DNA from: SAR324 cluster bacterium
GTDB lineage: Bacteria > SAR324 > NAC60-12
DNA: 64,000 nt
NCBI GenBank assembly: GCA_015232315.1
Contig: JADFZZ010000006.1
Location: forward strand, 94,600-158,599
Direction of reading: 5' to 3'
The notes beneath the pieces were generated by a model, which was not told where the DNA came from, searched no databases, and was given only the letters and a program-made list of their open reading frames with translations. The position numbers were made by a program, and so were the translations under genes. Shown here piece after piece: positions 3,516-50,494 of this stretch; within the stretch, counting starts at the first letter, position 1; every line of letters starts with the position of its first letter.

Positions 3516-4763
3516 ATGCACCAGCAAATATTCTCTTCTCAAATATCCAGATTGCCAGTTTGGGCAATATTTCAGCGATTTTTTTTAAATCACCCTTCTG
3601 AATTATTGGTTCATGCTATTGCAACTCTTGGTCTTATGGCCAGAATTTCCTGGAAAGAGCAGGGTTTTCAGCACGAAGAAATCCAGTATATGGCTAGTCA
3701 ACTGGCTGAAATTCTAAATATTAGCCAGGAAGAAGTTAATTCATTGATACTTGAACTCAAAGCAATTCAATGGCGAACTTCTTTTGCTGAAAAGCAACTT
3801 TTTGAGCAATTTTTCAGGTTTGAGTGTGATCGTTCTACCAGAAATGCCTTGTTGAGATCATTGCTGGGAATGGCTGGTTGTGACAAAGCTCTGACGGAGC
3901 GTGAATGTGCCATCATCTTGAGAACAGTGCAATCCATTGGACTTTCCCTGACGGAGTATAAAATGGCTGTTTTGCCATATACGTCTGTTCTTGTATCGGC
4001 TCAGGCTGGATTGAATAAATATATTTTAAATGCAGCAGGTAATGAAAATGTACAAATATATTGCCAGAATAAAATCGTGACTCAGGAGTTGGAAAATATA
4101 TCTCTGGCAGAATTGACCTTTAGAAGTAATAAGAAAATATCTGTTGGTACTTTGATTCAGATTAGTCTTTTTTCCTATATATCCATTATATCTTATGTGT
4201 CACGTGCAAAGAAAGAAGATGGTCAGTGGGTGATCAGCCTTGATTTGGATCTTAATCCTGTGGAGTGTGGGTATTTGGATAATCTGCTCCACATGGGGTC
4301 AATCAATCAGCCTGAAATCAGCCTGAAAACGACATTTGCATCTTGCCAACAATTGCCTGAACAACTGCTGGGATACTTATGGAATAGTATGCCTGATTCC
4401 AGAGCAGATATGGCTATGTCTTTGAAGAAAATGATTGAATCCCGGAAAGTGCTACCCAATTTGATTTTCAGTGATATTCAGGCTTGGCATGCTGATTTAC
4501 TGAAAACACAGATGGAAAAACGAAATATTTTGTTTGGCAATCCGGATTGGGATGTGATTGGACAACAACTGGATCAGGAATTTTCTGAGCCATTGTCAGT
4601 GATTATAAAGCTTCAATTACTGAGTCTGATCCGATGGATATTGCCCAAGGGATTATGGAAAAAAAAGGTGTTTTCGACATCGGAAATGGCAGTTATCAAA
4701 CCTATGATGGAACAATTAGGATTATCCCCTGAAAAATGGAGTTTAGAGAGGGCTGCAATATGA
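3516..4763 (+). CDS. Hypothetical protein (N-terminal region weakly TerB/DjlA-N-like), first gene of an SBP-cyclase operon
   Basis: 415-aa ORF without hallmark catalytic motifs. Its stop overlaps the start of the downstream solute-binding protein gene (ATGA at 4760-4763), indicating translational coupling. Confidence 0.45.
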   Translation: MHQQIFSSQISRLPVWAIFQRFFLNHPSELLVHAIATLGLMARISWKEQGFQHEEIQYMASQLAEILNISQEEVNSLILELKAIQWRTSFAEKQLFEQFFRFECDRSTRNALLRSLLGMAGCDKALTERECAIILRTVQSIGLSLTEYKMAVLPYTSVLVSAQAGLNKYILNAAGNENVQIYCQNKIVTQELENISLAELTFRSNKKISVGTLIQISLFSYISIISYVSRAKKEDGQWVISLDLDLNPVECGYLDNLLHMGSINQPEISLKTTFASCQQLPEQLLGYLWNSMPDSRADMAMSLKKMIESRKVLPNLIFSDIQAWHADLLKTQMEKRNILFGNPDWDVIGQQLDQEFSEPLSVIIKLQLLSLIRWILPKGLWKKKVFSTSEMAVIKPMMEQLGLSPEKWSLERAAI

Positions 4764-6343
4764 GGTGTGGGTTCTCAGATGCTATTTTCAGGAAAATATT
4801 GCAATCGGGATTTCTGGTTTTTACAATCATGATCATGGGTCTGATTCCTGATCTCTGGGGGATAACTCCACAGTATGGTGGAACATTTATTTACCGGGCG
4901 CCAGATAAGGTTCAAATACTTGATCCGCCTAGAATTGAAGACAATGTCAGTTATAATATTTCAGGCAATATCTATGAGGGTTTAGTACGATATCAGGGTG
5001 AGTCTGCGATTATTGAACCTTCCTTGGCCACACGTTGGGAAGTCTCAAAAGATGGATTGTATTGGACGTTTTTTTTGAGACATGAAGTAGTTTTTCATGA
5101 CAATACAAAGCTTAACGCAAATGCTGTCTTATTTTCATTCATGAGACAGATGGATGAGCATCATCCGTATTATCGAGATGATTTTCTTTATAAAGATGTC
5201 ATTTTCAGCCATGTAAAATCCCTTAGCGTTCTGGATGAATACACCATACAGTTTGAACTTTCCAAACCGTTCAGTCCATTTTTGCATCTACTGACTATGC
5301 CTCCAGCAAGGATCGTATCTCCCGATGCTGTCATGAAAAATCCAGATGAGTTTGGACTGCATCCTGTGGGAACGGGTCCTTTTTATGTCAAGGAATGGAC
5401 TGAGCGTGATTTGGTGCTTGAACCATTCGGTGCGCATTGGGAGGGGCGTCCTTATCTGGATCGGGTCATCATTCAACCTGCAAAATATTTGAAGACGATG
5501 CTTCTAAGTATGAGGCAAGGTAATCTTCACCTTTCAGAAGGGGTTACCAGTCGTGAACTATTATGGGTTCGTGGTGATTCTGAAATAAAAATGAAAAAAA
5601 CCGCGGCCAATTCGATCAAATTTATAGTTTTCCACACCCAAAAACCTCCATTAAACGACATTAGAATCCGTCGAGCTCTTCAAGATGTTTTGAACCGCAA
5701 AGGTTTGGTGAGTTGGTTATGGCAAGATAATGCGCTGCCGACCAATTCACCTGTTCCCCCAAGCAACTGGGCCTACAAAGCGGTTGATATTCCTGTGCAG
5801 AATCTTGAAAAAGCTAAAGAGTTGCTGAATGAAGTCATAACAGAACCGTTATCACTGAAAGTGGTTATGTTGCAAACCCGTGATACAGCATGGGAACGTT
5901 TTTTTGAGAGTTTTTCAGCGGCATGTTCACAGGTGAATGTTCAATTGAATGTGAAGACGTTAAAAGGAAAAGACTATCTTCAGGCAATGAAAACCGGCGA
6001 TTATGATCTAATCTGGATGGGATGGTCTGGAGATCATGCGGATCCTGACAATTTTGTCTATCCCTTGCTTCATTCCATTAATGCGTATCCGGGAAGTTTT
6101 TCAAATTTATCTTATTACAGTAATCCCGTTATGGATGAATTGATTGAAAATGCTCAACGGGAAACCGTCATGGAAAAACGTCAACAGCTATATTATAAAA
6201 TTCAGGAAATACTGGTTGAAGAAATTCCATGGATTCCGATACTTGTTCCACAGAATATTTATCTGTATCACCATTCTGTTCAGGATGTCAGTGTTACTGT
6301 GACCGGGAGGGTAAAGCTCGAAAAAATCTGGATTGAGAAATAA
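4760..6343 (+). CDS. ABC-type substrate-binding protein, family 5 (DppA/OppA/NikA-like), orphan (no permease/ATPase genes adjacent)
   Basis: Signal peptide after the M at 4760 (MRCGFSDAIFRKILQSGFLVFTIMIMGLIP). Family-5 SBP-like segments (GTGPFYVKEW, WSGDHADPDNF). Start placed at 4760 because of ATGA coupling with the upstream ORF. Confidence 0.75.
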   Translation: MRCGFSDAIFRKILQSGFLVFTIMIMGLIPDLWGITPQYGGTFIYRAPDKVQILDPPRIEDNVSYNISGNIYEGLVRYQGESAIIEPSLATRWEVSKDGLYWTFFLRHEVVFHDNTKLNANAVLFSFMRQMDEHHPYYRDDFLYKDVIFSHVKSLSVLDEYTIQFELSKPFSPFLHLLTMPPARIVSPDAVMKNPDEFGLHPVGTGPFYVKEWTERDLVLEPFGAHWEGRPYLDRVIIQPAKYLKTMLLSMRQGNLHLSEGVTSRELLWVRGDSEIKMKKTAANSIKFIVFHTQKPPLNDIRIRRALQDVLNRKGLVSWLWQDNALPTNSPVPPSNWAYKAVDIPVQNLEKAKELLNEVITEPLSLKVVMLQTRDTAWERFFESFSAACSQVNVQLNVKTLKGKDYLQAMKTGDYDLIWMGWSGDHADPDNFVYPLLHSINAYPGSFSNLSYYSNPVMDELIENAQRETVMEKRQQLYYKIQEILVEEIPWIPILVPQNIYLYHHSVQDVSVTVTGRVKLEKIWIEK

Positions 6344-6345
6344 TC

Positions 6346-8310
6346 ATGCGTTGGTCCATCAAATATAAAATCATTATCCTTGCTGTTGCGGTATCGTTGT
6401 TGGCGGCATTCGTGGTGACATGGGTGAGCATTCGTCAGGTCACGTTGCAGGTCAACAAACAGTTGAATGAAACAGGCCAGGGCCTTCTTGAAAGCGTGCA
6501 GAATCATATTCGACAGGATCTGGAAAAAGCAGAAAGATTTGCAGATTTATTAGCGACTCATCATCAACTACGTGAATATCTTTTGCATCATGATGCGGAA
6601 ACACTGGTTTCATGGTTGAACAAACAATCTGAAATGGAGATATATGCGTTGCTTGAAATATTTGATCGGGAGGGGAACCGTGTTGCGGTTAACCGATGGC
6701 TGAACAAGGACAGTGATGAATTGACGCCCTATTTGACCGATCAGAAAGACCCTGTTTTACAAGCAGCTCTGAAGTATCAAATATCTGCTGAAATCAAACA
6801 ATTGACACAAGGTTTGTCCATTCGGGTGACAGTTCCGATTGTGGATATTATCACGATTAAGGTTCTGGGGGTTTGTGTGGTGAGTTTCCCCATGAATTAT
6901 GACTGGATAGATCGAATCAGGGCTGAATCTCCCTATCATTTGGCTTTGATTGCCAACAGCCAGTCTAAATTAGCAACCAGCGTGATCACTCCAGAAGGTC
7001 GACGTATGGAAGAACTACCTGTTGAAATTTCCCAAAATATATCGGGCGATTTACCGGGGCAAATTGAACAAATATCATTGTTTGATCATTCCTATATGGT
7101 TCTGTTTGCGCCGATTTATGATCCGCGTTCCATTGCCCAGGGACAAATGATTGCCTTGATGCAGAGAGATTTGATCGAATCCACAACGGAACAGATTCTG
7201 AATGTACTGGTTTTTGTGGCATTGGCCACTGTTTTGGGGTGTGTGATCCTTGGAACTTTTGTTGCATACGGCATGACCAAACCTTTGCAACGTTTGATGG
7301 AAGCCATGCACCGGATTGCTGAAGGGGATCTGGACCAGACCATTAAAGTGAGTTCCAGAGATGAGATTGGTGAGCTAACACAGGCCGCTCAATGGATGCA
7401 GGATGAATTGAGAACCATCCAGGATCTTGTGGACAAGATGTTACAAACATTTCAATTGTTTGTGCCAACTCAGTTTCTAAGACATATCGCACATGATGGC
7501 ATCGAAAATGTGAAGTTGGGAAATGCCCAACAGGAAACAGTCTCTGTCCTGTTTTCAGATATCCGTGGTTTTACGACAATTTCAGAATCCATGTCTCCAC
7601 AGCAGTTGCTGGATTTTCTCAATCTTTTGTTTCGGCAGGTCGGAAAAGCCATTGAACAATATGGTTTTATTGACAAGTTTATTGGAGACGCGGTGATGGC
7701 TGTTTTTGAAGGGGAAGCAGAAGATTACAGCGGAGCGCAAAATGCGGTGACTACCGCGTTGATTATGCAAACAGCGTTGCAGAAATTCAGAAATGAAAAT
7801 CATTCACCCGTAGAAATCGGGATTGGAATTAACACTGGACCTGTGGTGATTGGAACGGTTGGAACCTCAAGCAGGATGGATTCAACTGTGCTGGGAGATA
7901 CCGTCAATCTGGCATCCCGCATGGAAGGGTTGACCAAAAATTATGGAGGGTCGTTGCTGATTTCGGAAAATACATTCAAACAGCTTCCAAACACCCACTG
8001 TTTTCAGATTCGAGCTGTTGACAAGGTTAGAGTGAAAGGTAAAAAAGAACCGATTACTGTGTATGAAGTATTTGATAATGATTCTCCTCCAGTTCTTGAA
8101 AAAAAACTGGGTATTCAGAATTTTCTCGAACAGGGACAAGCATTGTATTACTCTCGGCAGTGGCAAGAAGCTCTCGATTTATTTCAGAAATGTTTCAACC
8201 TTTTCCCGGAAGATGTAGTGAGCCAAATGTATTTGGATCGTTGCCGGGAATTTTTCCATCATCCCCCTCCCGGAGATTGGGATGGTGTCATTAGTATGAA
8301 AACAAAATGA
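6346..8310 (+). CDS. Membrane sensor class-III adenylate/guanylate cyclase with periplasmic sensor domain, HAMP domain and C-terminal TPR-like region
   Basis: N-terminal TM, a ~270-aa periplasmic region and a second TM (LNVLVFVALATVLGCVILGTFVAY). HAMP-like segment (RIAEGDLDQTIKVSSRDEIGELTQAAQWMQDEL). Class III cyclase motifs FSDIRGFTTISE and GDAVMAVF. Starts 3 nt after the SBP stop. Confidence 0.8.
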   Translation: MRWSIKYKIIILAVAVSLLAAFVVTWVSIRQVTLQVNKQLNETGQGLLESVQNHIRQDLEKAERFADLLATHHQLREYLLHHDAETLVSWLNKQSEMEIYALLEIFDREGNRVAVNRWLNKDSDELTPYLTDQKDPVLQAALKYQISAEIKQLTQGLSIRVTVPIVDIITIKVLGVCVVSFPMNYDWIDRIRAESPYHLALIANSQSKLATSVITPEGRRMEELPVEISQNISGDLPGQIEQISLFDHSYMVLFAPIYDPRSIAQGQMIALMQRDLIESTTEQILNVLVFVALATVLGCVILGTFVAYGMTKPLQRLMEAMHRIAEGDLDQTIKVSSRDEIGELTQAAQWMQDELRTIQDLVDKMLQTFQLFVPTQFLRHIAHDGIENVKLGNAQQETVSVLFSDIRGFTTISESMSPQQLLDFLNLLFRQVGKAIEQYGFIDKFIGDAVMAVFEGEAEDYSGAQNAVTTALIMQTALQKFRNENHSPVEIGIGINTGPVVIGTVGTSSRMDSTVLGDTVNLASRMEGLTKNYGGSLLISENTFKQLPNTHCFQIRAVDKVRVKGKKEPITVYEVFDNDSPPVLEKKLGIQNFLEQGQALYYSRQWQEALDLFQKCFNLFPEDVVSQMYLDRCREFFHHPPPGDWDGVISMKTK

Positions 8311-11300
8311 CTACAATTTATCGTTTTGTGTGGATATTAGGGATATGGAGCGTTCTTCATGGCATGATTCCCGGATTGATTTGGGCGGAAGAAGAAGGCT
8401 CAGCTAAGGGTAAACTGGCTGAACTTGAATGGCACACAATCGAAACCAGACACTTTTTCGTCCATTATCATGATGATATCGAAGAACTGGCACGCCTTTG
8501 CACTGTGTATGCTGAAGAATCTCATGAAATTCTCGCCCCCTTGCTGGATTGGGAACCCCAGCAAAAAACACACATGATTATTACCGATATTCTGGATAAT
8601 CAGGATGGCAACGCACGCAATCTCCCTTATCCCATTTTACGAATTTATCCTTATCCGCCAACAATCAACAGTGCCATTGCTGAATATGAGAGCAGTGATT
8701 GGCTGCGTATCCTGATTTTACATGAATATGTCCACATTCTGAATCTGGACACAGTGGCGGGATATTCCAAAGTAGTGAGAGACTGGTTTGGTCGACCGGG
8801 GATTGCGTTCAATCCTTTAGCGGCAACGGGGTTTCTCCATCTGAACAGTCCAAATAACTTTGCTCCTCCCTGGTTGACAGAAGGATTGGCTGTATATCTT
8901 GAAACAGAACTGACTCACTCAGGACGGGGGATTAGTCCTAAGTCAGAAATGCTGTTCAGGATGGGAACGAAATTGAATGATTTGATCAGCCTGGACCAAC
9001 TTGATTTTTATCGTTTGGGATTTCCAGGACAACATGCGTCCAGATATATTTATGGAGCCTATTTCCTTGATTATCTGATCAGTGAAAGATCTCCTGAATA
9101 TGTTGGGAAACTCAATCATCTTCTGGCTGAATGGCCTCCATACATGGGAATACATATGCTGGAAGATGAATCAGGAGCCTATCTGGTAGCGGCTTATGAA
9201 CGTTTTCTGGAATACACCAGGACAGAGCATGAGAAACGGTTGGCGATTCTTGAAACTCAGTCTTTGACCCAGTTTCAGGGAATCCAGACGCATGGTTTTT
9301 TACAACGAAATTTTGCGCTGTCTCCAGATGAACGAAAAATGGCCTTTGTCCTGATTGATGTCAAAGGACAGAAACATTTAAAACTGTGGCGGGAATATCC
9401 ATTGACCGGGGGTTATTTCAGGGAACTGGCTCCGGCAGCAACTCAGGATGACCGATGGATTTATACGACATCTCAGGGAATTCCTGTTGAAGAATTTGAA
9501 ACTTTAACCAATCAGGATGCACTTTCACTCAGTTGGCATCCTTCTGAAAAATATTTATTTTATACCGCCCTGTCTCCAGAAGGAATATATTCATTTCAGG
9601 AGCTTTTCGTTTATGACTTTAAAACCGCAAAAACACATCAACTGACCACAAATGCCAGAATTGGGGATGTGGATGTGTCACCTGACGGCAAATTTCTGAT
9701 TGGTGTTGAAAGCGGGAAAGGGCATCAAAATCTGGTTCTGTATGAATTGACGGAAATCCCTGATTCTGGTGATAAACCACCATTTAAGGCAATGCGTCTG
9801 GATGTCTTGACCAAGCATCAATATTCTCGTGTGAGTCAACCCAAATGGGATCATCAGGGAAAAAGACTGGTGTATTCCCTGTCTGATCGCAAAGGGGATA
9901 CTTTTCTGCCCATTATTGACATGGAATCCCGTCAGGAAATCAAGATTATCTCTCAGGGACACCTCCAATCTAATCCAGTCTGGGAACCTGGGGACAATGC
10001 CATTCTGTTTAGTTCTGATCACACTGGAGTCAGCAATATCTATCGTTACAGTCTGGAGTCAGAGGTCATGCTACCCATCACTCATGTTCTTGGTGGAGCG
10101 TTGGAACCTGTGATTTCAAGGCGAAAGGAAAGACTTTATTTTCAGAATTTTTATGGAGAAGGACTGGAACTGGCGTTTATTGAATGGAAAGCGGGGCAAA
10201 CACGTTCAGAACCTTTGCCACAAATCACGCCTGTCTGGAAGCACCAACCGGAATTGGCTGTGGTGCGGGATGGTTCTGTCACCCAATCTGTGACAGAACC
10301 ACAGGAGCCTTATTCTCCGTGGCAGAGCATGTTTCCGCAGTTCTGGTTTATTTATGCTGAAGATGCTCCGGGAGGTTACGCCTGGGGTTTGATCACAGCC
10401 GGGGTTGATGCGCTGGAAGAACAAGGGTATTACGGTGCGGTAACGTATGGAGAGGGGCAACCTTATTACCGGTTTTCCTATTATACAGACCACTGGTATC
10501 CAAATCTGAGTTTTTCATCTTCATTGCTTCCGCAACGATATTCCAAAATTCCTAATTTGAGACAGGGGTGGGAATTGCTGCAGGAACATGTTGTAGGTAT
10601 TTCCTTCAAGCTGGATGACTGGTCTTTGGGGTTTAATTACCTCAATACCACAGAAACTCCATATGAAGACAGCGGGTTTCTGACTGAAGCCAATAAACGC
10701 GCTACCGAAAAATTGGCTACAGCACAAAATCCTTACCGAAGTGTCGGAGATTATTTCAAGCGTCGGACCTTTACCGGCAATCATCAAGGATTCAATTTGT
10801 TTTCCTCCTATTCTACAGTGTCTCATTTTCCCACGTCAATCAGTGAGGAATCCGGAAGCTATTTTTCGGTTGGTTATACGCATTATCCCACGTCTTTAGG
10901 TGATAATCCTGAAATAAAAACATTGGCCGGGGAAGATTTTGATGCGGCGGTACTGTACATGGAAAATACAGATCCGGGATTCAGCTACGATCAGCTCACA
11001 CCTAGACGGGCAGAAACCCTTGCCAGTCTCCTCCATGCAAAAGAACAACTGGTGTCTAATGAGTATCAATTGCTGACAACCAGTTATGGCCACTTTTTTT
11101 CATCGCCCTGGCCCAGGAATGTGTTCCATTGGAATTTGAATGGGGGGGTTGGATTGAATGGAAGCGAGCTATCTGCGGAATTCATGACCAGAGTCAACAT
11201 TCCAGTTCGTGGTTACAAATATGATCTGGAAACCGCTCGTCAATATATCAGCCAGACCATAGAATGGCGTATGCCGTTAGGGAGTGTTTTCAGAGGAATA

Positions 11301-11606
11301 GGTTTGATCCCTTTTTATTCGGAACAGGTGCATACCGCATTGTTTTATGATTATGCGGTATTTAGTGGGGGGTATACCGCCACAGACATTTATATTGGGG
11401 ATGAATCATTTTTATTACGTGATGACCAGGGGGTGGCCACCCGTCGTGGGACTGGTTTTGAGCTTAAGCTGAGGAGCAAATATGGTTATCGTTTTCCTGT
11501 AGACCTGATTGTCAGGTATTCCTATGCTCCTGATATCAACAATATCGCGGGTATCGACGGCAAGAAGGGCTATCTGCTTGAACTGGATTATGAAACATCG
11601 TTTTAA
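8307..11606 (+). CDS. Large outer-membrane protein: signal peptide, HExxH metallopeptidase-like region, TolB-like beta-propeller repeats, C-terminal beta-barrel
   Basis: ATGA overlap with the cyclase stop (8307-8310). Signal peptide MTTIYRFVWILGIWSVLHG. HEYVH (HExxH) at about residue 140. Repeated propeller-like blades (DVSPDGKFLIGVESGKG, WDHQGKRLVYSLSDRKGD, WEPGDNAILFSSDHTGVSNIYRY). Alternating amphipathic C-terminal strands ending in ...LELDYETSF, an OM beta-barrel terminal Phe signature. Confidence 0.55.
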   Translation: MTTIYRFVWILGIWSVLHGMIPGLIWAEEEGSAKGKLAELEWHTIETRHFFVHYHDDIEELARLCTVYAEESHEILAPLLDWEPQQKTHMIITDILDNQDGNARNLPYPILRIYPYPPTINSAIAEYESSDWLRILILHEYVHILNLDTVAGYSKVVRDWFGRPGIAFNPLAATGFLHLNSPNNFAPPWLTEGLAVYLETELTHSGRGISPKSEMLFRMGTKLNDLISLDQLDFYRLGFPGQHASRYIYGAYFLDYLISERSPEYVGKLNHLLAEWPPYMGIHMLEDESGAYLVAAYERFLEYTRTEHEKRLAILETQSLTQFQGIQTHGFLQRNFALSPDERKMAFVLIDVKGQKHLKLWREYPLTGGYFRELAPAATQDDRWIYTTSQGIPVEEFETLTNQDALSLSWHPSEKYLFYTALSPEGIYSFQELFVYDFKTAKTHQLTTNARIGDVDVSPDGKFLIGVESGKGHQNLVLYELTEIPDSGDKPPFKAMRLDVLTKHQYSRVSQPKWDHQGKRLVYSLSDRKGDTFLPIIDMESRQEIKIISQGHLQSNPVWEPGDNAILFSSDHTGVSNIYRYSLESEVMLPITHVLGGALEPVISRRKERLYFQNFYGEGLELAFIEWKAGQTRSEPLPQITPVWKHQPELAVVRDGSVTQSVTEPQEPYSPWQSMFPQFWFIYAEDAPGGYAWGLITAGVDALEEQGYYGAVTYGEGQPYYRFSYYTDHWYPNLSFSSSLLPQRYSKIPNLRQGWELLQEHVVGISFKLDDWSLGFNYLNTTETPYEDSGFLTEANKRATEKLATAQNPYRSVGDYFKRRTFTGNHQGFNLFSSYSTVSHFPTSISEESGSYFSVGYTHYPTSLGDNPEIKTLAGEDFDAAVLYMENTDPGFSYDQLTPRRAETLASLLHAKEQLVSNEYQLLTTSYGHFFSSPWPRNVFHWNLNGGVGLNGSELSAEFMTRVNIPVRGYKYDLETARQYISQTIEWRMPLGSVFRGIGLIPFYSEQVHTALFYDYAVFSGGYTATDIYIGDESFLLRDDQGVATRRGTGFELKLRSKYGYRFPVDLIVRYSYAPDINNIAGIDGKKGYLLELDYETSF

Positions 11607-11686
11607 TACAGGCTTCAGTTTTGTAAATACTTGTATTATTGTCCATCCCTTTCATGTGTTTTGTTAATTTCTTTAGAGAAAGTAAT

Positions 11687-12376
11687 ATGAAACGATTAAC
11701 TATTCTGGAATGGATCTCATATCTGTCTCTGGCTGGATGCGGGATCTGGATTTTTGTGGCGCCCATTGAATCGGAAATGGGATTTATTCAGAAAATAATG
11801 TATTTGCATTTGCCTTCAGTTCTGGTCACATATCTGGCTTTTTTTGTGGCCTTTGCCTGCAGTATTGCTTATTTGTGGAAACGGGACATTGTTTATGATC
11901 AGGTAGCCCGGTCTTCCGCGGAAGTCGGATTAATTTTTTGCGGGTTGGTTCTGGTAACAGGATCCATCTGGGGAAAACCAACATGGGGCACTTACTGGGT
12001 ATGGGACGCCAGGCTGACCACAACACTCATTCTGTTTATGATTTTTTCAGGTTATTTCCTGCTACGGATGTTTGCGACAGACCACGAACAGCAAGCAAGA
12101 CTTGCTGCAATTCTGGCGATTGTGGGATTTCTTGATATTCCTATCGTTCACCAGTCTGTCAAATGGTGGCGAACATTGCATCAGCCCACGACCTTGTTTA
12201 AAACAGAAAATGGTCAGGCTGCGGCATCTATTCCCAATGAACTGCTGATGCCACTCATGGCCTCGATGCTGGCGGCGTTAGTGTTTTACGTATTTCTGTT
12301 TTTAATGCGGTATGAGGTGGAAAAACGCCATCATGAACTTCAGGAAAAAATTGCGGATCAGCATTTTCATTCATAA
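11687..12376 (+). CDS. ccmC: Cytochrome c-type biogenesis heme exporter protein CcmC
   Basis: Tryptophan-rich WWD motif WGKPTWGTYWVWDARLTTTLILF. Multi-TM protein of ~230 aa. Start moved to the internal ATG at 11687 (MKRLTILEW...) preceded by a weak RBS. The ORF track's 11639 start adds an unlikely N-terminus. Confidence 0.8.
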   Translation: MKRLTILEWISYLSLAGCGIWIFVAPIESEMGFIQKIMYLHLPSVLVTYLAFFVAFACSIAYLWKRDIVYDQVARSSAEVGLIFCGLVLVTGSIWGKPTWGTYWVWDARLTTTLILFMIFSGYFLLRMFATDHEQQARLAAILAIVGFLDIPIVHQSVKWWRTLHQPTTLFKTENGQAAASIPNELLMPLMASMLAALVFYVFLFLMRYEVEKRHHELQEKIADQHFHS

Positions 12377-12396
12377 ACTATTGCCAAGGTGTTTTT

Positions 12397-12546
12397 ATGC
12401 CAATGAATCTCGATTATGTCCTTGCTTCATACGGAATTACATGTGGAGTTTTTTTGATTTACATCGTTGTGATGAAATTAAAATTACGTGAATATAACAA
12501 ACAGATGGGGGCGCACCCTGAATCAGAAAATGGAGACAAATTATGA
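12397..12546 (+). CDS. ccmD: Small single-TM protein, probable heme exporter protein CcmD (49 aa; absent from the ORF track because it is under 60 aa)
   Basis: ORF ATG at 12397, TGA at 12544-12546, translating MPMNLDYVLASYGITCGVFLIYIVVMKLKLREYNKQMGAHPESENGDKL. One hydrophobic helix followed by basic residues. It lies between ccmC and ccmE and overlaps the ccmE start codon (ATGA), the canonical position and size for ccmD. Confidence 0.5.
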   Translation: MPMNLDYVLASYGITCGVFLIYIVVMKLKLREYNKQMGAHPESENGDKL

Positions 12547-12977
12547 AAACAAAATATAAATTTTTAATTGGCGGACTAGTTGTATTCGGCGCGATTGTGG
12601 CACTGTCCATTGTTGGGCTTCAGGAAATGACGGTCTTTTTTTATACACCTCAGGAAATTCTGGCCGCGCCAGATGATTTTCAGGAAAAAACAATTCGAAT
12701 TGGTGCCATGGTGGAGAAGGGATCTATCGATTGGGATGCTGGAAAAATTAAACTGGCATTCAGAATGACAGAAGACTCTCAACATTATATTCCTGTAGTA
12801 TATCATGGGGTCAAACCTGATATGTTCAAAGAAGGACAGGGGGTTGTGGTGCAGGGGCAACTTGAGGGAGATACTTTTTATGCGGATGAATTACTGGTGA
12901 AACATAGCGAAGATTATAAACTCGAAGCGGGTGACCATAAAAATAAACAAGAAATGTACAAATCTTTGATGCAGTAA
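12543..12977 (+). CDS. ccmE: Cytochrome c-type biogenesis protein CcmE (periplasmic heme chaperone)
   Basis: N-terminal TM anchor then an OB-fold region with the conserved FRMTED-like and LVKHSEDY (heme-binding His) segments. 144 aa, typical CcmE size. Confidence 0.85.
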   Translation: MKTKYKFLIGGLVVFGAIVALSIVGLQEMTVFFYTPQEILAAPDDFQEKTIRIGAMVEKGSIDWDAGKIKLAFRMTEDSQHYIPVVYHGVKPDMFKEGQGVVVQGQLEGDTFYADELLVKHSEDYKLEAGDHKNKQEMYKSLMQ

Positions 12978-12992: not shown

Positions 12993-15209
12993 ATGTCTGC
13001 CATTATCCGGGAAATCAAACAGCGTCTTGGGGATTTGCTGGAAACAGATCCCCGAATCCGCAATCGGCTGTTAGCAACAGTTGTTCTGTTGTTTTTGATC
13101 ATTTTTCTTGTTTTTTTTGATATCCAACAGGGATTTTCAGAATGGGAAAATATCAATTCCAAATTGAGCATTTTTGTAGCTCTCAACATCAATCTGGTGT
13201 TGTTGGTTCTGGTATTTTATCTCATTCTCAAAAACATTCTGAAACTGGCCTATGAACGTCACAAGCATGCTATTGGCGTTAATTTAAAAACAAAACTGAT
13301 CATTTCATTTCTCCTCCTCTCATTTCCAGCAACAATTTTCCATTTGTTCGCCAGTGGTTTTATCGCCTCAACACTGGAAAACTGGCTCACTGGTCAGCAT
13401 AAATCCGTCATACATAATGCTCAGAAAGTTGCGGATGCTTATCATCGAAATCTGAAAAACATCATGGATTTACAAGGGTGGGTGGTTGAAGCGAACCTTC
13501 AGCGTCATCCTGAACTTCTGGAATATCCCTCTTCACTGGATCATATTCTTACCAAGGAAATGGGGGAAGGGATTATTCTTTATAATCAGAATCATGAAAT
13601 GATGTATCAGGCATTGCGCAATACAGATTCCCAGAAATACTGGAAACCTTTGTCATCGACAGAATGGGAACAAATTGATATAGCGCCGGTTGCCTGGCTG
13701 GTAGAAGAATTGGAGGATCGGTTTATTTATCGTCATTTAAGAAATATGAAAGTCAGGGAACAGCGTTGGATACTGGAAATATTTCTGCCGGCCACCAAAA
13801 GTGTGACATTGGCCATCAATGAAATTGCTGAACAGGAACAGAATTCCAAGGTGATTTTTGAGTCGGAACAATTGGTCAAACAATACTATGTCATCATCTT
13901 TCTGTTCATGACCTTGTTTATCATTTTTGTGGCAATCTGGCTTGCTTTCTATCTGGCGCGGGGGTTTGTGAATCCCATTGAAAAACTTGCGATCGCGACC
14001 CAGCAGGTTGCTGAGGGGGCGTTGGGATATCAGGTCGAGAAATCAACCATGATGCTTGATCGTGATTTTGAGTTATTGATTGATTCGTTCAACTCCATGA
14101 GTAATCAATTGCTCGAAAATCAGTTGGCGTTAGCTCAGACCACGGAAAATCTTAGAAAAAGCCATATAATTCTTGAAGAACACACACGGTTTGTGGAACT
14201 GGTGCTGGAAAATATAAAAACCGGAGTGATGTCTGTTGATATGGAAGGAAGGGTTAATGGGTTGAACCGGGCGGCATTGTCGTTGCTGGAAGTTAAAATG
14301 AAAGATTATCACAATATCCATTATAGGGATTTATTATCCACGGATGCTCTGGAACCTCTGGATGAAATGTTCCACCAGATTCAGCAACAAACAGATTTCA
14401 CCATATCAAGAAATTTGAGTATGACCAAAAGCGGAGTGCCGGTTCATGTTTCTATGACCGCGTTGATTTTAAAAAATCCGGAAGGTAATACCGAAGGGAT
14501 GATTGCTGTGTTTGAAAATATTACGGAAATACAACGCTTGCAGCGGGCACGAGCATGGCGTGAAGTCGCACGCAGAATTGCTCATGAAATCAAAAATCCT
14601 TTAACCCCCATTCAGCTTTCTGCAGAAAGAATCCGGCATAAATACAGCCGATTGATTGAGGATGGAGATACGCTGGATAAATCAACGAAAACTATTATTC
14701 GGGAAGTAGAACAGCTTAAAAAAATGGTCAGTGAGTTTTCAAAATTCGCACGATTGCCTGAATCTAATCCTCAACAAGACAATCTCAATGACATTATTGA
14801 GGAAACAGTCCAATTGTATCATGCGATTCCACCGGAAATTGTTTTAAAAACCAGACTTTCACCCAAGCTTCCCAGATTTTCCGTGGACCGTGAACAGATC
14901 AAACGTGTGTTTATTAATCTCATTGACAATGCGATTGCCGCTATTGATAAGAGTGGTGAAATTCTGATACAGACAGAATATGATGCTGTGTTTAAAATCG
15001 TTCGCATTGATGTGATTGACTCTGGTCCCGGAATTGATCCTGCCATCCTTAATCGTTTATTTGAACCCTATGCGACCACAAAAAAACATGGGACAGGTTT
15101 GGGGTTAACCATTGCGAGTCAAATTATCTCGGATCATCAGGGATTTATTCGCCACAAAAAACCGAAAAATGGAGGAGCCTGCTTTTCAATTGAACTACCT
15201 GCTGTGTAA
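12993..15209 (+). CDS. NtrY-like sensor histidine kinase (multi-TM N-terminus, HAMP, PAS, HisKA, HATPase_c)
   Basis: H-box HEIKNPLTPIQLSAE, N/G boxes DNAIAAI, DSGPGI and GTGLGLTI. Four N-terminal TM segments and ~740 aa length match the NtrY architecture. No response regulator gene is adjacent. Confidence 0.8.
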   Translation: MSAIIREIKQRLGDLLETDPRIRNRLLATVVLLFLIIFLVFFDIQQGFSEWENINSKLSIFVALNINLVLLVLVFYLILKNILKLAYERHKHAIGVNLKTKLIISFLLLSFPATIFHLFASGFIASTLENWLTGQHKSVIHNAQKVADAYHRNLKNIMDLQGWVVEANLQRHPELLEYPSSLDHILTKEMGEGIILYNQNHEMMYQALRNTDSQKYWKPLSSTEWEQIDIAPVAWLVEELEDRFIYRHLRNMKVREQRWILEIFLPATKSVTLAINEIAEQEQNSKVIFESEQLVKQYYVIIFLFMTLFIIFVAIWLAFYLARGFVNPIEKLAIATQQVAEGALGYQVEKSTMMLDRDFELLIDSFNSMSNQLLENQLALAQTTENLRKSHIILEEHTRFVELVLENIKTGVMSVDMEGRVNGLNRAALSLLEVKMKDYHNIHYRDLLSTDALEPLDEMFHQIQQQTDFTISRNLSMTKSGVPVHVSMTALILKNPEGNTEGMIAVFENITEIQRLQRARAWREVARRIAHEIKNPLTPIQLSAERIRHKYSRLIEDGDTLDKSTKTIIREVEQLKKMVSEFSKFARLPESNPQQDNLNDIIEETVQLYHAIPPEIVLKTRLSPKLPRFSVDREQIKRVFINLIDNAIAAIDKSGEILIQTEYDAVFKIVRIDVIDSGPGIDPAILNRLFEPYATTKKHGTGLGLTIASQIISDHQGFIRHKKPKNGGACFSIELPAV

Positions 15210-16782
15210 GAACCTTGTGCGCCTGATCTTGCTGATAACAGTTGGAAGCTCAATTATATTTTTGTTTGCTGGTAATTCAGCCGGTGCTGATTCAAACTCC
15301 AGAGTCCTTGAAATTGTCGTAACGTCAGACTTACATGGAAATCTGGGGGATGAAACAAATTCATTTTCTCCTGCCGGAATCACGACTCTAGTACCTTTGA
15401 TTCACTCCCTCAGACAAAATAATCCGAATTTAATCCTGCTGGATGCAGGTGATACATTAAATGGTGACAGGCTATCCTATTACATGGATAAGGTGATGGC
15501 TCATCCCGTTCCTCCATGGCCAATCATCCAGCTTATGAACGCTCTTGAGTATGATGCGGTTGTTCCTGGAAATCATGATTTCGATTGGCCTGCTTCCGTT
15601 TTTGTCCGTTCCATCCAAATGTCTCAATTTCCCTGGATTTCAGCCAATATCAAGAATCATTCAATAGAAAACCTGTTTTTAGCCCAATATCGGATTATTC
15701 AACGACAAGGACTAAGGATCGGTATTCTTGGTTTGACAACGCCAGGAGTCCCCTTATGGGTTGATACCTCCAATTTAGGAACATTGGTGGTTGACGACAT
15801 GGTTTCAGCGGCCCGGCATTGGAGTCAGGTTTTAAAACCGCAGGTAGATATTTTGATAGGTTTGTTTCATAGCGGCGAAGAAGCTGATTATGATTATCAG
15901 GAAAGCTTGCTAAAACAGATTCCAATGCCAAATGCATCAGGAATAATCGCGGATTCTATCTCTGATTTTGATCTGATCATTGCAGGACATACGCATAAAA
16001 TATTCCCTCGAACTCAAAAATCGATGCCCGGTTCTTTCATTATGCCGTTGATACTTCCGGGAAGTCATGGCGAAGGACTCATGGATATTCAACTGCACCT
16101 GAAATTCATAAATGGAAGATGGAATGTGACTCAAACAATGGCTGAATTTAAAAGGCCTCTTAAAAAATCTCTCACAGACCAAAGTAATAAAACTCTTGCG
16201 TATCTTGACCCATGGATGAAGGGGGTTAATCAATATTTTGATGCAAAGACTGCAATCCAATTTGTAAAGGATCCTGCAAAAATAGAACTGGAATCCTGTG
16301 GTCGTCAGTTATCGTATGACGCATTGGTTTATTTTGAAGGGAATGGAGATGCCGCGGTGCTTTCAAATTGGAAATGGAACAGGATGCCAAAAAAAATTGC
16401 AGGAATCTACCTTTCCAGAAAACATTTGTTTGATTGGATGCCATACTTTAATAAGATTGTGAGAGCTTCAATTAGTGGGAGTCAACTTACAATGCTGAAA
16501 CGATTGGAGCGGAAAAAGCAAAAACGTCCTGGAAGGCAGATTTATGTTGTTCCAGACCTGGATCAAAAAAAATTGGTTGCTGACCAGTTTTATTCCATAT
16601 GGTTCACCAATTATCACTGGAATGGCGGATCAGGAATTACACTGGAAAGCTTGATTGAACCGGAACAGAAGCGCAATTTGAGTCAGCAGATTCTTCAGGA
16701 ATATATCTTTTATTATCTCCGGAAATTTCCAGAACAATTACCAGAGATTTGTAAAGGTTTTTTGAAATCTGTTGGGGATTAA
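15169..16782 (+). CDS. Secreted bifunctional metallophosphatase / 5'-nucleotidase family protein
   Basis: Calcineurin-like motifs DLHGN, DAGDTLNGD, GNHDFD and GHTHK. Signal-peptide-like LILLITVGSSIIFLFAGNSAGA. Start is uncertain: the ATG at 15169 overlaps the kinase by 41 nt, and a GTG at 15217 is an alternative. Confidence 0.55.
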   Translation: MEEPAFQLNYLLCKNLVRLILLITVGSSIIFLFAGNSAGADSNSRVLEIVVTSDLHGNLGDETNSFSPAGITTLVPLIHSLRQNNPNLILLDAGDTLNGDRLSYYMDKVMAHPVPPWPIIQLMNALEYDAVVPGNHDFDWPASVFVRSIQMSQFPWISANIKNHSIENLFLAQYRIIQRQGLRIGILGLTTPGVPLWVDTSNLGTLVVDDMVSAARHWSQVLKPQVDILIGLFHSGEEADYDYQESLLKQIPMPNASGIIADSISDFDLIIAGHTHKIFPRTQKSMPGSFIMPLILPGSHGEGLMDIQLHLKFINGRWNVTQTMAEFKRPLKKSLTDQSNKTLAYLDPWMKGVNQYFDAKTAIQFVKDPAKIELESCGRQLSYDALVYFEGNGDAAVLSNWKWNRMPKKIAGIYLSRKHLFDWMPYFNKIVRASISGSQLTMLKRLERKKQKRPGRQIYVVPDLDQKKLVADQFYSIWFTNYHWNGGSGITLESLIEPEQKRNLSQQILQEYIFYYLRKFPEQLPEICKGFLKSVGD

Positions 16783-17870: not shown

Positions 17871-17951
17871 ATATTTTATAATTGTGTTTCTCTGATGTGC
17901 GGTTTTTCCAGACTACTAACCAGAAATTCTTTTGCAAGGCCGCATGATTCC

Positions 17952-20738
17952 ATGAGGGCTGTAATTAGTTTTTTTGTTATCATTTTCTGGTTGTTGCCGC
18001 TACAAAATTTATTTGCCCAGAATAATGACTGGCCTCATTATAAAATTGAGGTTCACTATCACGATGAATCCAGGGTGTTGCAAGGAAAATGTTCAATCAC
18101 CTTTAACCCTCAGATTTATTCTGGACGTGAATTGATAGTGAGTTTGCCTATGAACCGTTTTGCTTCGATTGATCACCGGGGCACACGTAAAATTTTGGAA
18201 ACTCCTGTTTTTGCATTAGATTCTTACAGCAGACTGAAAGATGATCCTTTGTTTCCCTATGGGTTCCAAAAAGGATTTACCAAGATTGACTCTCTTACAG
18301 ATACCAACAACCGGCCAATTCCATTTTCCATCGAGAATAACCCGGATCTGCCTGTTGGATACAGCACGGAACATGGACTATTACGAGTTTCTCTTGAAGA
18401 GGCAATTCCTGAAAATACGCTTGTTTTTGAATTTACTACCAAATTGCCGGTACGGTTTCAGGACGGACTTGTCTTTAAGGAATTGATGGTAGTTGAATGG
18501 CACCCAGTTTTGCTGTCCTACAAGCATGGAACATGGATAAAGGATATGATGGAACCATCTCCTGGAATCTATGAAGTCATGTGGACTGCTGATACTACAG
18601 GACTTTTAATCACTTCGGCTGGAGATCTGGAATACGGCCAAGCCAGGCAACATGTCAAACTTGAACAAGTCCAGCCGCTCAAATATTTTCCACTGATTTT
18701 CTCACCGAATTATTCTCGATTGAATACTGGACATCCGGTAATCGAGTCCTATTATTTTTCAGAAGATCTACGTCGTGCCCAATTACTACAGATCTGGGGG
18801 GAAGAATTTCTTGATTATATGGCCTCTGAATTTGATTTGAAGCAACCGTGGGACAAAATCAGAATAGTGGAGGTGAGAGGCAATTATGAAGATATCAGGG
18901 TTGTCAATAATCTCATATTGGTCACGATTCCTCATTACAAACGCAGCACCTTTATGGACAGGCGAGTATTGGGCTTTTTTTCGCGTGGTATGGCAGAATT
19001 ATGGTTTGGTGAGAAGGTTTGGGCCAATGAGGATACGCAATTATGGTTGCATATGGGACTGCCAGCCTTTTTCAGTCTGAAATTTTTTGAATATAAATAT
19101 GGGCTTGACGCTAGAATTTTTGATTTTTTTGACTGGCTGAATCCTCACTATCGGGAGCACTTTTTTGAAAGCATGGTGCGCGGAGTGAATCCGGCTTTGG
19201 AAGTACCGATTATGTCTAAAATTTCAAAGTTATCCGACTATCGGGTCTATCTGAAATTTGCGACTTATAAGACAGCATTGGTATTTTCCATGTTACAGTA
19301 TCTGACCGGAAATGCTGCTTTCAGGAAAGGACTTCGTCATTTTTTTGAAAATAATCAGTATCAGGTGGTGACCTTAAAGGATATTCATCAATCTATGGAG
19401 CAAATGTATCCTGAACCGCTGGATTGGTTTTTTTTGCAATGGTTCTATACCACAGATACAATGGATTACGGGATTCGTGAATTCACGTATGATGAATTGC
19501 CAGCGGGAGGATATGAAGTCAGGGTTGTTATTGAAAAAAAAGACAAAGGACAGATGCCGGTTGATGTTGTTATTGAAACCGAAGATGAGCAGGTGATCCA
19601 TAAACGCGCATTGGGAAATCAGGATATTGAGATGATCCGATTTATTACCGTCTCTCCTCCTGTATCCATATCTTTGGATCCTGATGAAATATTATTGGAG
19701 ACTGATAGACAAAACAACCAATCATTTCATTATTTCAGAGTCCGTTTTGCGTTTGACTGGCAGAAAAACAGGGAAATTCTGATCACGTTGGTTCCTAGAG
19801 GAAGCAGTAATGCATTTGATGGCAACCATATTGGTTTGGAAACCAGACATGTTATTGGTGATTATATCTATAATGTGACACCTGGCTATGGAACAAAAAA
19901 CGAACAGCTTACCTATCAATCCTCTGTTGAACGAAGGAATTTGTTGGGAATTAAGGGGTTTGTCGCCAATGTTAATCTTTCCCGGATTGGAGGTATTTTA
20001 TCGAAAGGAGTGGGACTCCTTTATAGTTCGCCTCAACATCAGGAAAAATACTCTTACAATTATGCCGTCAATCTGGCCCAGCAAGCAGCTTTTAAAGCCA
20101 GAAAAACGTCGTCAGGTATCTCTTCAGATATCATTGAAACAGGGGATACCAGCAATATTTCCATATCACATACCAGCAACATTGGATTTGGAAATATATA
20201 TTATCTGGAATTCAATCTGGGATTCGAAAAACCAGTTCTCGCATTGGGGTCTGATTTTGACTACACACTTTGGACTGCTAAAATCCAGCATGCGATCAAA
20301 ACAGGTTTTCGTAAAAGAATTGACTGGGAATGGATAGGGGGAACGACCCAAGGAACCAGTCCATTACAGAAACATCACCAACTTGGCAGTCCAACGGTAT
20401 TGAGAGGTTATCCCCAAAGGACAATCCTGCGGGATGAAAATTTGCTGGCAATGCGGTGTGATTTTTCATTTCCGGTTATTTCTTCACAGTGGTGGGGGGA
20501 TATCTCATCACTTGGAGTTTTAGGAGGTATTTTTTATGATATGGGTAAAGTTTGGGGTAATGATGTGAATCCTGCGGATGTACCACTTCGTCAGGATGTT
20601 GGTGTTGGTCTGGTATGGAACATCAATGCCGTTTCATTGGCAGAAGCCCCCTTGAAAATTGAAGTTGCCTACCCTCTCAATGATCCGGAATTTACCAAGC
20701 CACAGCTTATTCTATTTGAAGTATTAAGCATTTTTTAA
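17952..20738 (+). CDS. Large outer-membrane protein with N-terminal gluzincin/M1-peptidase-like domain (zinc motif degenerate) and C-terminal beta-barrel
   Basis: Start set at the internal ATG at 17952, giving signal peptide MRAVISFFVIIFWLLPLQNLFAQ. The segment GMAELWFGEKVWANEDTQLWLHMGL resembles the M1 HExxH-x18-E region but lacks the two His. C-terminal ~350 aa are alternating beta-strand-like and end in ...FEVLSIF. Confidence 0.5.
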   Translation: MRAVISFFVIIFWLLPLQNLFAQNNDWPHYKIEVHYHDESRVLQGKCSITFNPQIYSGRELIVSLPMNRFASIDHRGTRKILETPVFALDSYSRLKDDPLFPYGFQKGFTKIDSLTDTNNRPIPFSIENNPDLPVGYSTEHGLLRVSLEEAIPENTLVFEFTTKLPVRFQDGLVFKELMVVEWHPVLLSYKHGTWIKDMMEPSPGIYEVMWTADTTGLLITSAGDLEYGQARQHVKLEQVQPLKYFPLIFSPNYSRLNTGHPVIESYYFSEDLRRAQLLQIWGEEFLDYMASEFDLKQPWDKIRIVEVRGNYEDIRVVNNLILVTIPHYKRSTFMDRRVLGFFSRGMAELWFGEKVWANEDTQLWLHMGLPAFFSLKFFEYKYGLDARIFDFFDWLNPHYREHFFESMVRGVNPALEVPIMSKISKLSDYRVYLKFATYKTALVFSMLQYLTGNAAFRKGLRHFFENNQYQVVTLKDIHQSMEQMYPEPLDWFFLQWFYTTDTMDYGIREFTYDELPAGGYEVRVVIEKKDKGQMPVDVVIETEDEQVIHKRALGNQDIEMIRFITVSPPVSISLDPDEILLETDRQNNQSFHYFRVRFAFDWQKNREILITLVPRGSSNAFDGNHIGLETRHVIGDYIYNVTPGYGTKNEQLTYQSSVERRNLLGIKGFVANVNLSRIGGILSKGVGLLYSSPQHQEKYSYNYAVNLAQQAAFKARKTSSGISSDIIETGDTSNISISHTSNIGFGNIYYLEFNLGFEKPVLALGSDFDYTLWTAKIQHAIKTGFRKRIDWEWIGGTTQGTSPLQKHHQLGSPTVLRGYPQRTILRDENLLAMRCDFSFPVISSQWWGDISSLGVLGGIFYDMGKVWGNDVNPADVPLRQDVGVGLVWNINAVSLAEAPLKIEVAYPLNDPEFTKPQLILFEVLSIF

Positions 20739-49545: not shown

Positions 49546-49555
49546 AAGGCCATTG

Positions 49556-50494
49556 TTATGTACTGCTGAGAATGCGATCAAAATAAGCAATGGTGTGTTT
49601 CAAGCCCTCATCCAGAGAAACTATTGGTTCCCAGCCAAGTTCTTTTTTTGCGAGGGAAATATCAGGTTTCCTTCGCGTCGGGTCATCCTGACGCCGGTCA
49701 ATTTGTTCAATCACAGATTTTGAATTGGTCAAGTTGATGACTTTTCGGGCCAATTCCATCATAGTGAATTCTCCAGGATTACCGATATTGACAGGTCCAG
49801 TAAAATTGTCCTTGTTCATCATGCGCATGATAACTTCTACCAGATCAGAAACATATGAAAAAGATCGAGTTTGTTCACCATCACCGTGAAGCACCAAAGG
49901 TTGCCCTTTCAAGGCGGCAACAATAAAATTACTGACGACCCTGCCATCTTCAAGATGCATACGTGGACCATAAGTGTTAAAAATACGGACAATTTTTGTA
50001 TCCACATGATTTTGTCGATGATAATCCATCATAAGAGTTTCTGCGACTCTCTTCCCTTCGTCATAACAACTCCTGATTCCAATGGGATTGACAGACCCCC
50101 AGTAGTTTTCAGTTTGGGGATGGATTTCTGGATCTCCATAAATTTCTGATGTGGATGCTTGAAGTATCCTGGCTTTTACCCGTTTAGCGAGTCCAAGCAT
50201 ATTGATTGCACCCATGATGCTGGTTTTAATCGTTTTGACGGGATTGTATTGGTAATGTACGGGTGACGCCGGGCATGCAAAATTAAAGATCCAGTCAACT
50301 TCCAACAGAATTGGTTCAACCACATCATGACGAATCAGTTCAAATTGGGGGTTGTCGAGCAAGTGAGCGATGTTTCGTTTTTGTCCTGTGTAAAAATTAT
50401 CCAGGCAAATCACTTCATGCCCATCGTCAATTAAGCGGTCACATAAAAATGATCCGATAAATCCCGCACCACCAGTGACTAATACGCGTTTCAT
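49556..50494 (-). CDS. UDP-glucuronate decarboxylase (UDP-xylose synthase), SDR family
   Basis: N-terminal [45 protein letters not shown], typical of UXS/ArnA-C enzymes. Catalytic YxxxK present (YDEGKR). Confidence 0.85.

Follow-up and report, generated by a model that had tools for sequence, protein, structure and literature searches.

The stretch analysed here, called the window below, comprises 64,000 nucleotides of a SAR324 cluster bacterium (GenBank assembly GCA_015232315.1, contig JADFZZ010000006.1, positions 94,600 to 158,599 of the forward strand); all positions refer to this stretch. The gene under study lies at 8307-11606, and its 1099-residue product combines a predicted zinc peptidase domain, a beta-propeller and a C-terminal outer-membrane beta-barrel in a single chain. 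The features of this gene are the following (aa, amino acid positions).

8307-11606, forward strand: whole open reading frame (ORF), ATG start, 1099 aa plus stop.
8307-8387, forward strand: putative Sec signal peptide, aa 1-27, read from the sequence, with likely cleavage after LIWA.
8412-9260, forward strand: predicted gluzincin-type zinc metallopeptidase domain, aa ~36-318 (Foldseek, profile, and Pfam Peptidase_MA_2 in homologues).
8721-8735, forward strand: HEYVH, putative zinc-binding and catalytic motif, aa 139-143, with H139, E140 and H143 invariant.
8871-8903, forward strand: WLTEGLAVYLE helix with the invariant E192, the putative third zinc ligand (conservation, ColG alignment).
9045-9047, forward strand: Y247 of a YxYG motif, candidate transition-state-stabilising Tyr, invariant in 40 homologues.
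9300-10184, forward strand: six-bladed PD40/TolB-like beta-propeller, aa 332-626 (Pfam, profile, AlphaFold2, Foldseek).
10185-10346, forward strand: short linker with one helix, aa 627-680 (AlphaFold2); its 54 residues are too few for a POTRA domain.
10347-11603, forward strand: predicted 16-stranded Omp85-type outer-membrane barrel, aa 681-1099 (Pfam in homologues, profile, AlphaFold2).
11205-11216, forward strand: VRGY, aa 967-970, presumed Omp85 loop-6 motif (V/I)RG(F/Y), between strands 11 and 12.

The product is 100% identical to 'hypothetical protein HQM11_07005' from a SAR324 cluster bacterium metagenome-assembled genome, and it ends in LDYETSF, with a terminal Phe. Its N-terminus, MTTIYRFVWILGIWSVLHGMIPGLIWA|EEE, resembles a Sec signal peptide when the sequence is read; AlphaFold2 modelled this stretch as a lone helix (aa 2-30), and a hydrophobic leader also opens the homologues. 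When the query was searched alone against Pfam, NCBIfam and PDB sequences, it matched PD40/TolB repeats only, at approximately aa 450-635. The full-length AlphaFold2 model, obtained with the family alignment, showed three modules (mean predicted local distance difference test score, pLDDT, 88; predicted template modelling score, pTM, 0.86), and the strand and blade counts given below were taken from the DSSP secondary-structure string of this model.

Judged from family profiles and the predicted structure, the C-terminal barrel is a BamA-type member of the Omp85 superfamily. The model is all beta over aa 681-1097, with 16 long strands and one lineage-specific hairpin in a loop; loops containing helices follow strands 7 and 9, and a long loop joins strands 11 and 12. 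Pfam Omp85 (PF01103) was matched in 21 of 40 homologues, but not in the query alone. A profile of the 40 sequences, compared with the PDB, matched BamA barrels over the whole C-terminal part (E values of 1e-7 to 1e-5; 4k3c at 9e-8), while a C-terminal profile of 13 sequences was less sensitive and matched one PDB Omp85 chain, with VRGY aligned to LRGY of the Omp85 crystal structure 9ccg. In this motif G969 is invariant and R968 is conserved in at least 90% of the sequences; from its position and its residues, we identify VRGY with loop 6 of Omp85 proteins. ALFYDYA, in the strand after the VRGY loop, agrees with the family consensus ALFxDxG. Neither an autotransporter nor a TonB-dependent receptor found support in Pfam, and both were discarded in favour of Omp85. 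The hairpin, at aa 1023-1040 (11373-11426) in an extracellular loop of the barrel, is inserted with respect to the family consensus, and most of the distant homologues lack it.

The N-terminal region, a mixed alpha/beta domain at aa 36-318 in the model, carries the HEYVH motif. H139, E140 and H143 were invariant in all 40 homologues, at about 18-49% identity, a conservation in the alignment that is far beyond that of a chance HExxH. The invariant E192 lies 49 residues past H143 (approximately 34 in most family members) and aligns with the Glu of WFDEG, in the WFDEGTAEF segment of collagenase ColG. This spacing of E192 is longer than that known for M1 and M9 enzymes. The only invariant residues of the 40-sequence alignment were H139, E140, H143, E192, G193 and Y247, together with G969 and G1050 of the barrel, and by analogy with M1 and M9 enzymes we infer a catalytic role for Y247. 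An N-terminal alignment, cut by hand to 330 residues of 17 sequences, gave H49, E70, P118, H139, E140, H143, P187, E192, G193, A195 and Y247 as invariant. Two of these, H49 (8451-8453, in an ETxHF strand) and E70 (8514-8516, in the first helix), fall outside the set formed by the HExxH motif, the Glu and the Tyr.

The N-terminal profile, compared with the PDB, matched the peptidase domains of the clostridial collagenases G, T and H (ColG, ColT and ColH; E values of 0.005-0.07), and the alignment with collagenase G paired HEYVH with HEYTH, WLTEGLA with WFDEGTA, and YxYG with YNYG. Residues 1-330 were also modelled separately (pLDDT 79) and used in a Foldseek search, in which all 26 matches at E<=1e-3 were M9 or M1 gluzincins (best E value 6e-5, TM-scores 0.36-0.46), as were the rest of the best 50 matches. 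The proteins retrieved included collagenases T, H and G, IRAP, PepN, ERAP1/2, LTA4H and tricorn factor F3. Pfam Peptidase_MA_2 was matched in three of the 40 homologues, whereas Pfam M1 (PF01433) matched neither the query nor any of the 40, the Pfam M9 models gave no match, and no GxMEN motif of M1 exopeptidases was present upstream of HExxH in the query. The domain is thus, according to the profiles and the model, M1/M9-like in fold and a member of neither family. With the gluzincin active site apparently intact in the sequence, it is probably a working protease rather than a scaffold only. Between HExxH and E192, aa 164-183 (8796-8855) form a low-confidence SAR324 insertion that most of the distant homologues lack.

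The central module contains 24 strands within aa 332-626 of the model, that is, six four-stranded blades as in TolB. The family profile retrieved TolB from the PDB with an E value of 1e-33, PD40 was found by Pfam in 35 of the 40 homologues, and the best 50 Foldseek matches of the full-length model were all propellers, headed by those of TolB and S9 peptidases. A true TolB was ruled out, because the N-terminal TolA-binding domain is missing; TIGR02800 (TolB) reached 60.6 bits where the cutoff is 343, covering profile positions 237-360 only. Tricorn protease was likewise rejected, since its matches were faint and confined to the propeller. Pfam found no POTRA domain in any of the 40 members; together with the 54-residue linker between propeller and barrel, this indicates that the protein is not an orthologue of BamA, TamA or TpsB.

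The original prediction, made from the letters of this DNA, had placed an HExxH region, a TolB-like propeller and a C-terminal barrel with a terminal Phe in one chain at 8307-11606, and both the modules and the coordinates proved correct. The PD40/TolB-like blades were recovered by the Pfam, NCBIfam and PDB searches and by the 24-strand model, the peptidase-like fold by the collagenase profile match and the Foldseek gluzincins, and the strand count that had been proposed as a check of the barrel gave 16. HExxH, whose conservation had been named as decisive, is invariant, and the predicted structure contains both a barrel and a gluzincin-like fold. Two expectations failed. The barrel had been described as not an Omp85, which is wrong given the Pfam matches in homologues, the BamA profile matches and the conserved VRGY; and a third zinc ligand had been sought 18-25 residues after HExxH, where no Glu is conserved, the invariant E192 standing at +49 instead.

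The architecture had also been thought not to belong to a commonly annotated family. It was in fact catalogued in 2014, when Heinz and Lithgow recognised ten subfamilies within the Omp85/TpsB superfamily and named one 'WD40-like' (PMC4104836). Their Table S2 gives this subfamily PF07676 (PD40) repeats and PF01103, and for its seven members in Table S3 the Phyre matches were to BamA/TamA barrels, TolB and an M1 aminopeptidase, with 1z5h, 4kxd and 4fgm as the best aminopeptidase matches at 98.7-99.4% confidence (PMC4104836). The same authors proposed, without experiments, that WD40-like members are a BamA+BamB-like fusion (PMC4104836). Papers from 2024 still give the subfamily as uncharacterised, and our literature search returned no other paper on it, nor did searches for Omp85 with PD40 give anything. 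With its PD40 propeller, predicted Omp85 barrel and aminopeptidase-like domain, the SAR324 protein is by architecture a divergent, previously unannotated member of this catalogued subfamily; the comparison was made against the architecture published in Tables S2 and S3 for members such as D0MEQ5, H1XQ58 and D5CSQ4. Of the accessions in these tables, we take D5CSQ4 and J1SNQ0 to be from Sideroxydans (Gallionellaceae) and Myxococcus, respectively; Gallionellaceae and Myxococcota genomes also contain the family motif of the SAR324 protein. The subfamily has the same three modules as the SAR324 protein, which differs in being too divergent for the Pfam Omp85 and peptidase models and in carrying the insertions between HExxH and E192 and in the barrel loop. 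Being so divergent, the SAR324 protein goes unrecognised by current annotation models, and its database entry reads 'hypothetical protein'.

A homologue search found 90 proteins. Six were SAR324-like, at 43-49% identity; many others, of 920-1050 aa and 22-28% identity, included members from Gemmatimonadaceae, Longimicrobiaceae, Myxococcales, Anaeromyxobacter and Thalassolituus. In the precomputed annotation of the distant homologues, PF01103 appeared in several, one was a 'BamA/TamA family outer membrane protein' and one carried Peptidase_MA_2. Among 1.84 billion cluster representatives, the N-terminal profile matched 12,885 at a cutoff of E<=1e-3, of which 3,364 also passed E<=1e-30, and its best matches were mostly 940-1030 aa long, the length of the full architecture. 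The spread among genomes was followed with a degenerate DNA pattern coding exactly for HEYVHILHLD, which occurred in the genomes of 78 species: cultured Anaeromyxobacter (oryzae, soli, terrae and PSR-1), many Myxococcota, Bradymonadales, Gallionellaceae, Acidiferrobacteraceae, other Gammaproteobacteria and SAR324, and single genomes of Nitrospiria, Spirochaetales and Desulfurivibrio. The Anaeromyxobacter terrae homologue matched PD40 and Omp85, the latter with 31.6 bits against a Pfam gathering cutoff of 24. One SAR324 member (P0005, L006:8001-12677) reaches 1558 aa, with approximately 480 residues of SH3-type repeats before the peptidase domain.

To our knowledge, PlpD of Pseudomonas aeruginosa is the only fusion of an enzyme to an Omp85 barrel that has been studied. 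Like the SAR324 protein, it has a hydrolase N-terminal to a 16-stranded Omp85 barrel, the scaffold being reused for a function other than assembly; however, PlpD carries a patatin lipase and one POTRA domain, whereas the SAR324 protein carries a predicted zinc peptidase and a propeller, without POTRA. The patatin domain of PlpD was found by experiment to be exclusively periplasmic (PMC11116518). BepA of E. coli, an M48 periplasmic zinc peptidase, docks on BamA, where it degrades outer-membrane proteins that have stalled (PMC8423444). It would share with the SAR324 protein an HExxH zinc peptidase acting at an Omp85 barrel, a likeness in proposed function only; the M48 enzyme BepA is soluble and a protein of its own, with a TPR domain, and the SAR324 protein has an M9/M1-like predicted gluzincin joined covalently to the barrel and a PD40 propeller. 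The catalytic domains of M9 collagenases and M1 enzymes have the thermolysin-like fold, the HExxH, the helix Glu in W-x-x-E-G and the conserved Tyr in common with it, but identity is about 12-18%, GxMEN is missing and there are no M1 N-terminal or C-terminal domains. The closest counterpart of the six-bladed PD40 propeller is the C-terminal domain of TolB, whose N-terminal domain is lacking here. Tricorn and the S9 oligopeptidases share the design of a peptidase with a PD40 propeller, although theirs is a serine hydrolase and the SAR324 one a predicted zinc enzyme.

Taken together, we consider it reasonably probable that the gene encodes a zinc peptidase tethered to the outer membrane and facing the periplasm, with a propeller gate, in the POTRA-less WD40-like branch of Omp85. 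The N-terminus of the barrel would be periplasmic and the peptidase-propeller module would be held at the inner face of the outer membrane, because the N-termini of Omp85 proteins are periplasmic and so is the enzyme domain of PlpD (PMC11116518). As in tricorn and S9 peptidases, the propeller may select unfolded polypeptides or oligopeptides or pass them on to the zinc site. In those enzymes, PD40 propellers fused to the peptidase serve as substrate filters. By analogy, the most likely job would be turnover or quality control of envelope proteins at the outer membrane, as a single-chain counterpart to BepA docked on BamA; trimming of imported peptides seems less likely.

Several points weigh against this interpretation. 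The query alone falls below the Pfam and NCBIfam thresholds for Omp85 and for every peptidase family, and both assignments come from family profiles and the predicted structure. For the peptidase-propeller module, a periplasmic position is argued by analogy only, and the secondary-structure string of the model does not show the propeller capping the active site. The specificity of the putative peptidase is not indicated, with the M1 GxMEN motif missing, and the neighbouring genes are not conserved across the family, so the context offers no clue to a substrate. The literature search found no experiment on any family member.

The same fusion could also be read as a peptidase displayed at the cell surface, the barrel acting as a translocator that exports the module, with extracellular proteins or peptides digested for nutrition. 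TpsB-type Omp85 proteins do translocate proteins, Heinz and Lithgow mentioned this possibility for Omp85 proteins that carry an enzyme (PMC4104836), and a gene for a peptide-binding SBP_bac_5 protein lies near the peptidase-Omp85 gene in several SAR324 genomes. Yet the barrel groups with the BamA type and not with TpsB, no POTRA domain is there to handle a substrate, and around 600 folded residues would have to cross a 16-stranded barrel; PlpD, once thought to be exported, proved periplasmic (PMC11116518). We therefore regard surface display as unlikely. An assembly factor resembling the BAM machinery, in which the barrel inserts or assembles outer-membrane proteins, the propeller is a BamB-like scaffold and the peptidase-like domain is a chaperone or a module for binding instead of a hydrolase, appears less likely still. 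It would agree with the homology of the barrel to BamA, including the loop-6 motif, with the BamA+BamB fusion idea (PMC4104836) and with the non-proteolytic promotion of assembly by BepA (PMC8423444), but the strict invariance of H139, E140, H143, E192 and Y247 argues for catalysis, the propeller is a six-bladed TolB/PD40 one where that of BamB has eight blades, and the POTRA domains are absent.

A third alternative, advanced in the original prediction, concerns the genes upstream. According to this idea, making or capturing the ligand of the adjacent SBP_bac_5 and cyclase pair would be the specific task of the protein, as a receptor or processing protease. The upstream neighbours in the window, and the arrangements of the family member and the cyclase gene in seven SAR324 genomes, are the following (SBP, solute-binding protein).

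3516-4763, forward strand: TerB, upstream neighbour.
4736-6343, forward strand: SBP_bac_5, upstream neighbour.
6346-8310, forward strand: dCache-HAMP-cyclase-TPR, an adenylate/guanylate cyclase gene directly upstream of the peptidase-Omp85 gene.
Window: peptidase-Omp85 gene in tandem with the cyclase gene, with an ATGA overlap.
L005: tandem, behind a cyclase-TPR-PilZ gene.
L001/L002, L006 and L090: adjoining TerB-SBP-cyclase, convergent.
L007: cyclase absent nearby.
GCA_028281495.1: SBP-cyclase (L089) and peptidase-Omp85 (L003) on different contigs.

In favour of such a partnership, the gene in the window is co-directional with the cyclase gene, its start codon overlapping the TGA stop of the latter by 4 nt (ATGA at 8307-8310), and a family member adjoins a cyclase gene in five of the seven SAR324 genomes, with three different arrangements. 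However, three of the five have the two genes convergent, hence not in one operon, and in GCA_028281495.1 they were found on separate contigs. Three distant homologues, one in a Thalassolituus genome and two in metagenome assemblies, have no SBP-cyclase adjoining and stand among unrelated housekeeping neighbours such as MutS/arginase and DinB/Na+-H+ exchanger, and the peptidase-Omp85 family extends far beyond the SBP-cyclase pair. The pair is a constant unit, of which the Omp85 gene is a frequent, non-obligatory neighbour, usually not co-transcribed; the case for functional coupling to the upstream TerB, SBP and cyclase genes is weak, and we give a dedicated role of this kind little chance. 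Equally improbable in our estimation is an envelope-spanning signalling path in SAR324, whereby the peptidase would cut a periplasmic or imported protein, the resulting peptides would bind SBP_bac_5, this would dock on the dCache sensor, and synthesis of cyclic nucleotide monophosphates by the HAMP-cyclase would be switched. It is suggested by the adjacency in five of seven SAR324 genomes and by the ATGA overlap in the window, and by nothing further; if true, it would connect second-messenger signalling with protein cleavage at the outer membrane.

Returning to the zinc peptidase held at the outer membrane and facing the periplasm, its interest lies in the scaffold on which it is built. The roles for which Omp85 is mainly known are construction of the outer membrane (BamA, TamA) and two-partner secretion, and the enzyme-bearing, POTRA-less branches show it reused for other jobs. 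What is added here is that the peptidase domain of the WD40-like branch keeps a complete and invariant putative gluzincin active site, and that the branch is very large, with thousands of clusters at 50% identity, among which divergent members such as the SAR324 protein escape current Pfam and NCBIfam models. The cultured Anaeromyxobacter species that carry homologues offer strains usable for study. If the proposed function is correct, a single chain with a BamA-like barrel and a BepA-like protease would provide a compact model of how outer-membrane proteins undergo quality control.

A second fusion of this kind lies 6 kb downstream in the window.

17895-20738, forward strand: apparent pseudo-M1 Omp85 fusion, 947 aa, with Pfam Peptidase_M1 at aa 304-516 and Omp85 at aa 703-937, without a propeller.

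In the alignment to tricorn factor F3, the zinc ligands of this protein are replaced (HExxH by RGMAEL and WLNEG by WLHMG), and the loss is also present in the consensus of nine homologues, whereas the VLRGF motif of the barrel is kept. It aligns with the family of the 8307-11606 protein in the barrel only. Its own family comprises 27 clusters, with source names only SAR324 or 'Deltaproteobacteria' (TL4), and the ten subfamilies of Heinz and Lithgow include no M1-Omp85 fusion that lacks a propeller (PMC4104836). The window thus holds two peptidase-type Omp85 fusions, one apparently active and the other a pseudo-enzyme, as far as their motifs tell, and the loss of zinc ligands in the M1-like neighbour makes their retention in the 8307-11606 protein look like selection for catalysis. 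The Metallophos ORF at 15112-16782 was considered as a 'Metallo-Omp85' in the sense of the same authors and was ruled out, as it lacks an Omp85 domain.

Regarding the surroundings of the gene, horizontal acquisition was rejected in view of the uniform GC content (0.38-0.45 across 24 kb), and a scan for promoters and terminators gave counts equal to the shuffle expectation. In the SAR324 loci (window, L001, L006, L089 and L090), SBP_bac_5 always stands directly before the dCache/HAMP cyclase gene, often overlapping it; TerB is usually upstream of SBP_bac_5, and no ABC permease is adjacent. This pair looks like a solute-binding-protein-dependent cyclase sensor unit. Directly downstream of the peptidase-Omp85 gene lie CcmC-like and CcmE genes (11639-12977, forward strand), followed by a HAMP-PAS histidine kinase gene at 12993-15209.

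Other ORFs of the window had unusual contents. Two overlapping genes on the forward strand, at 56668-58011 and 58008-61286, encode fusions of cyclophilin and parvulin (PPIC); the product of the second has 1092 aa, with cyclophilin at the N-terminus, parvulin at the extreme C-terminus and approximately 860 residues between them mostly without assignment. On the reverse strand, an 806-aa ORF at 31435-33858 had no Pfam match at E<=1e-3, and the 778-aa product of 47251-49590 showed weak matches to beta-propeller and TPR and a C-terminal DnaJ (J) domain, an unusual domain order.

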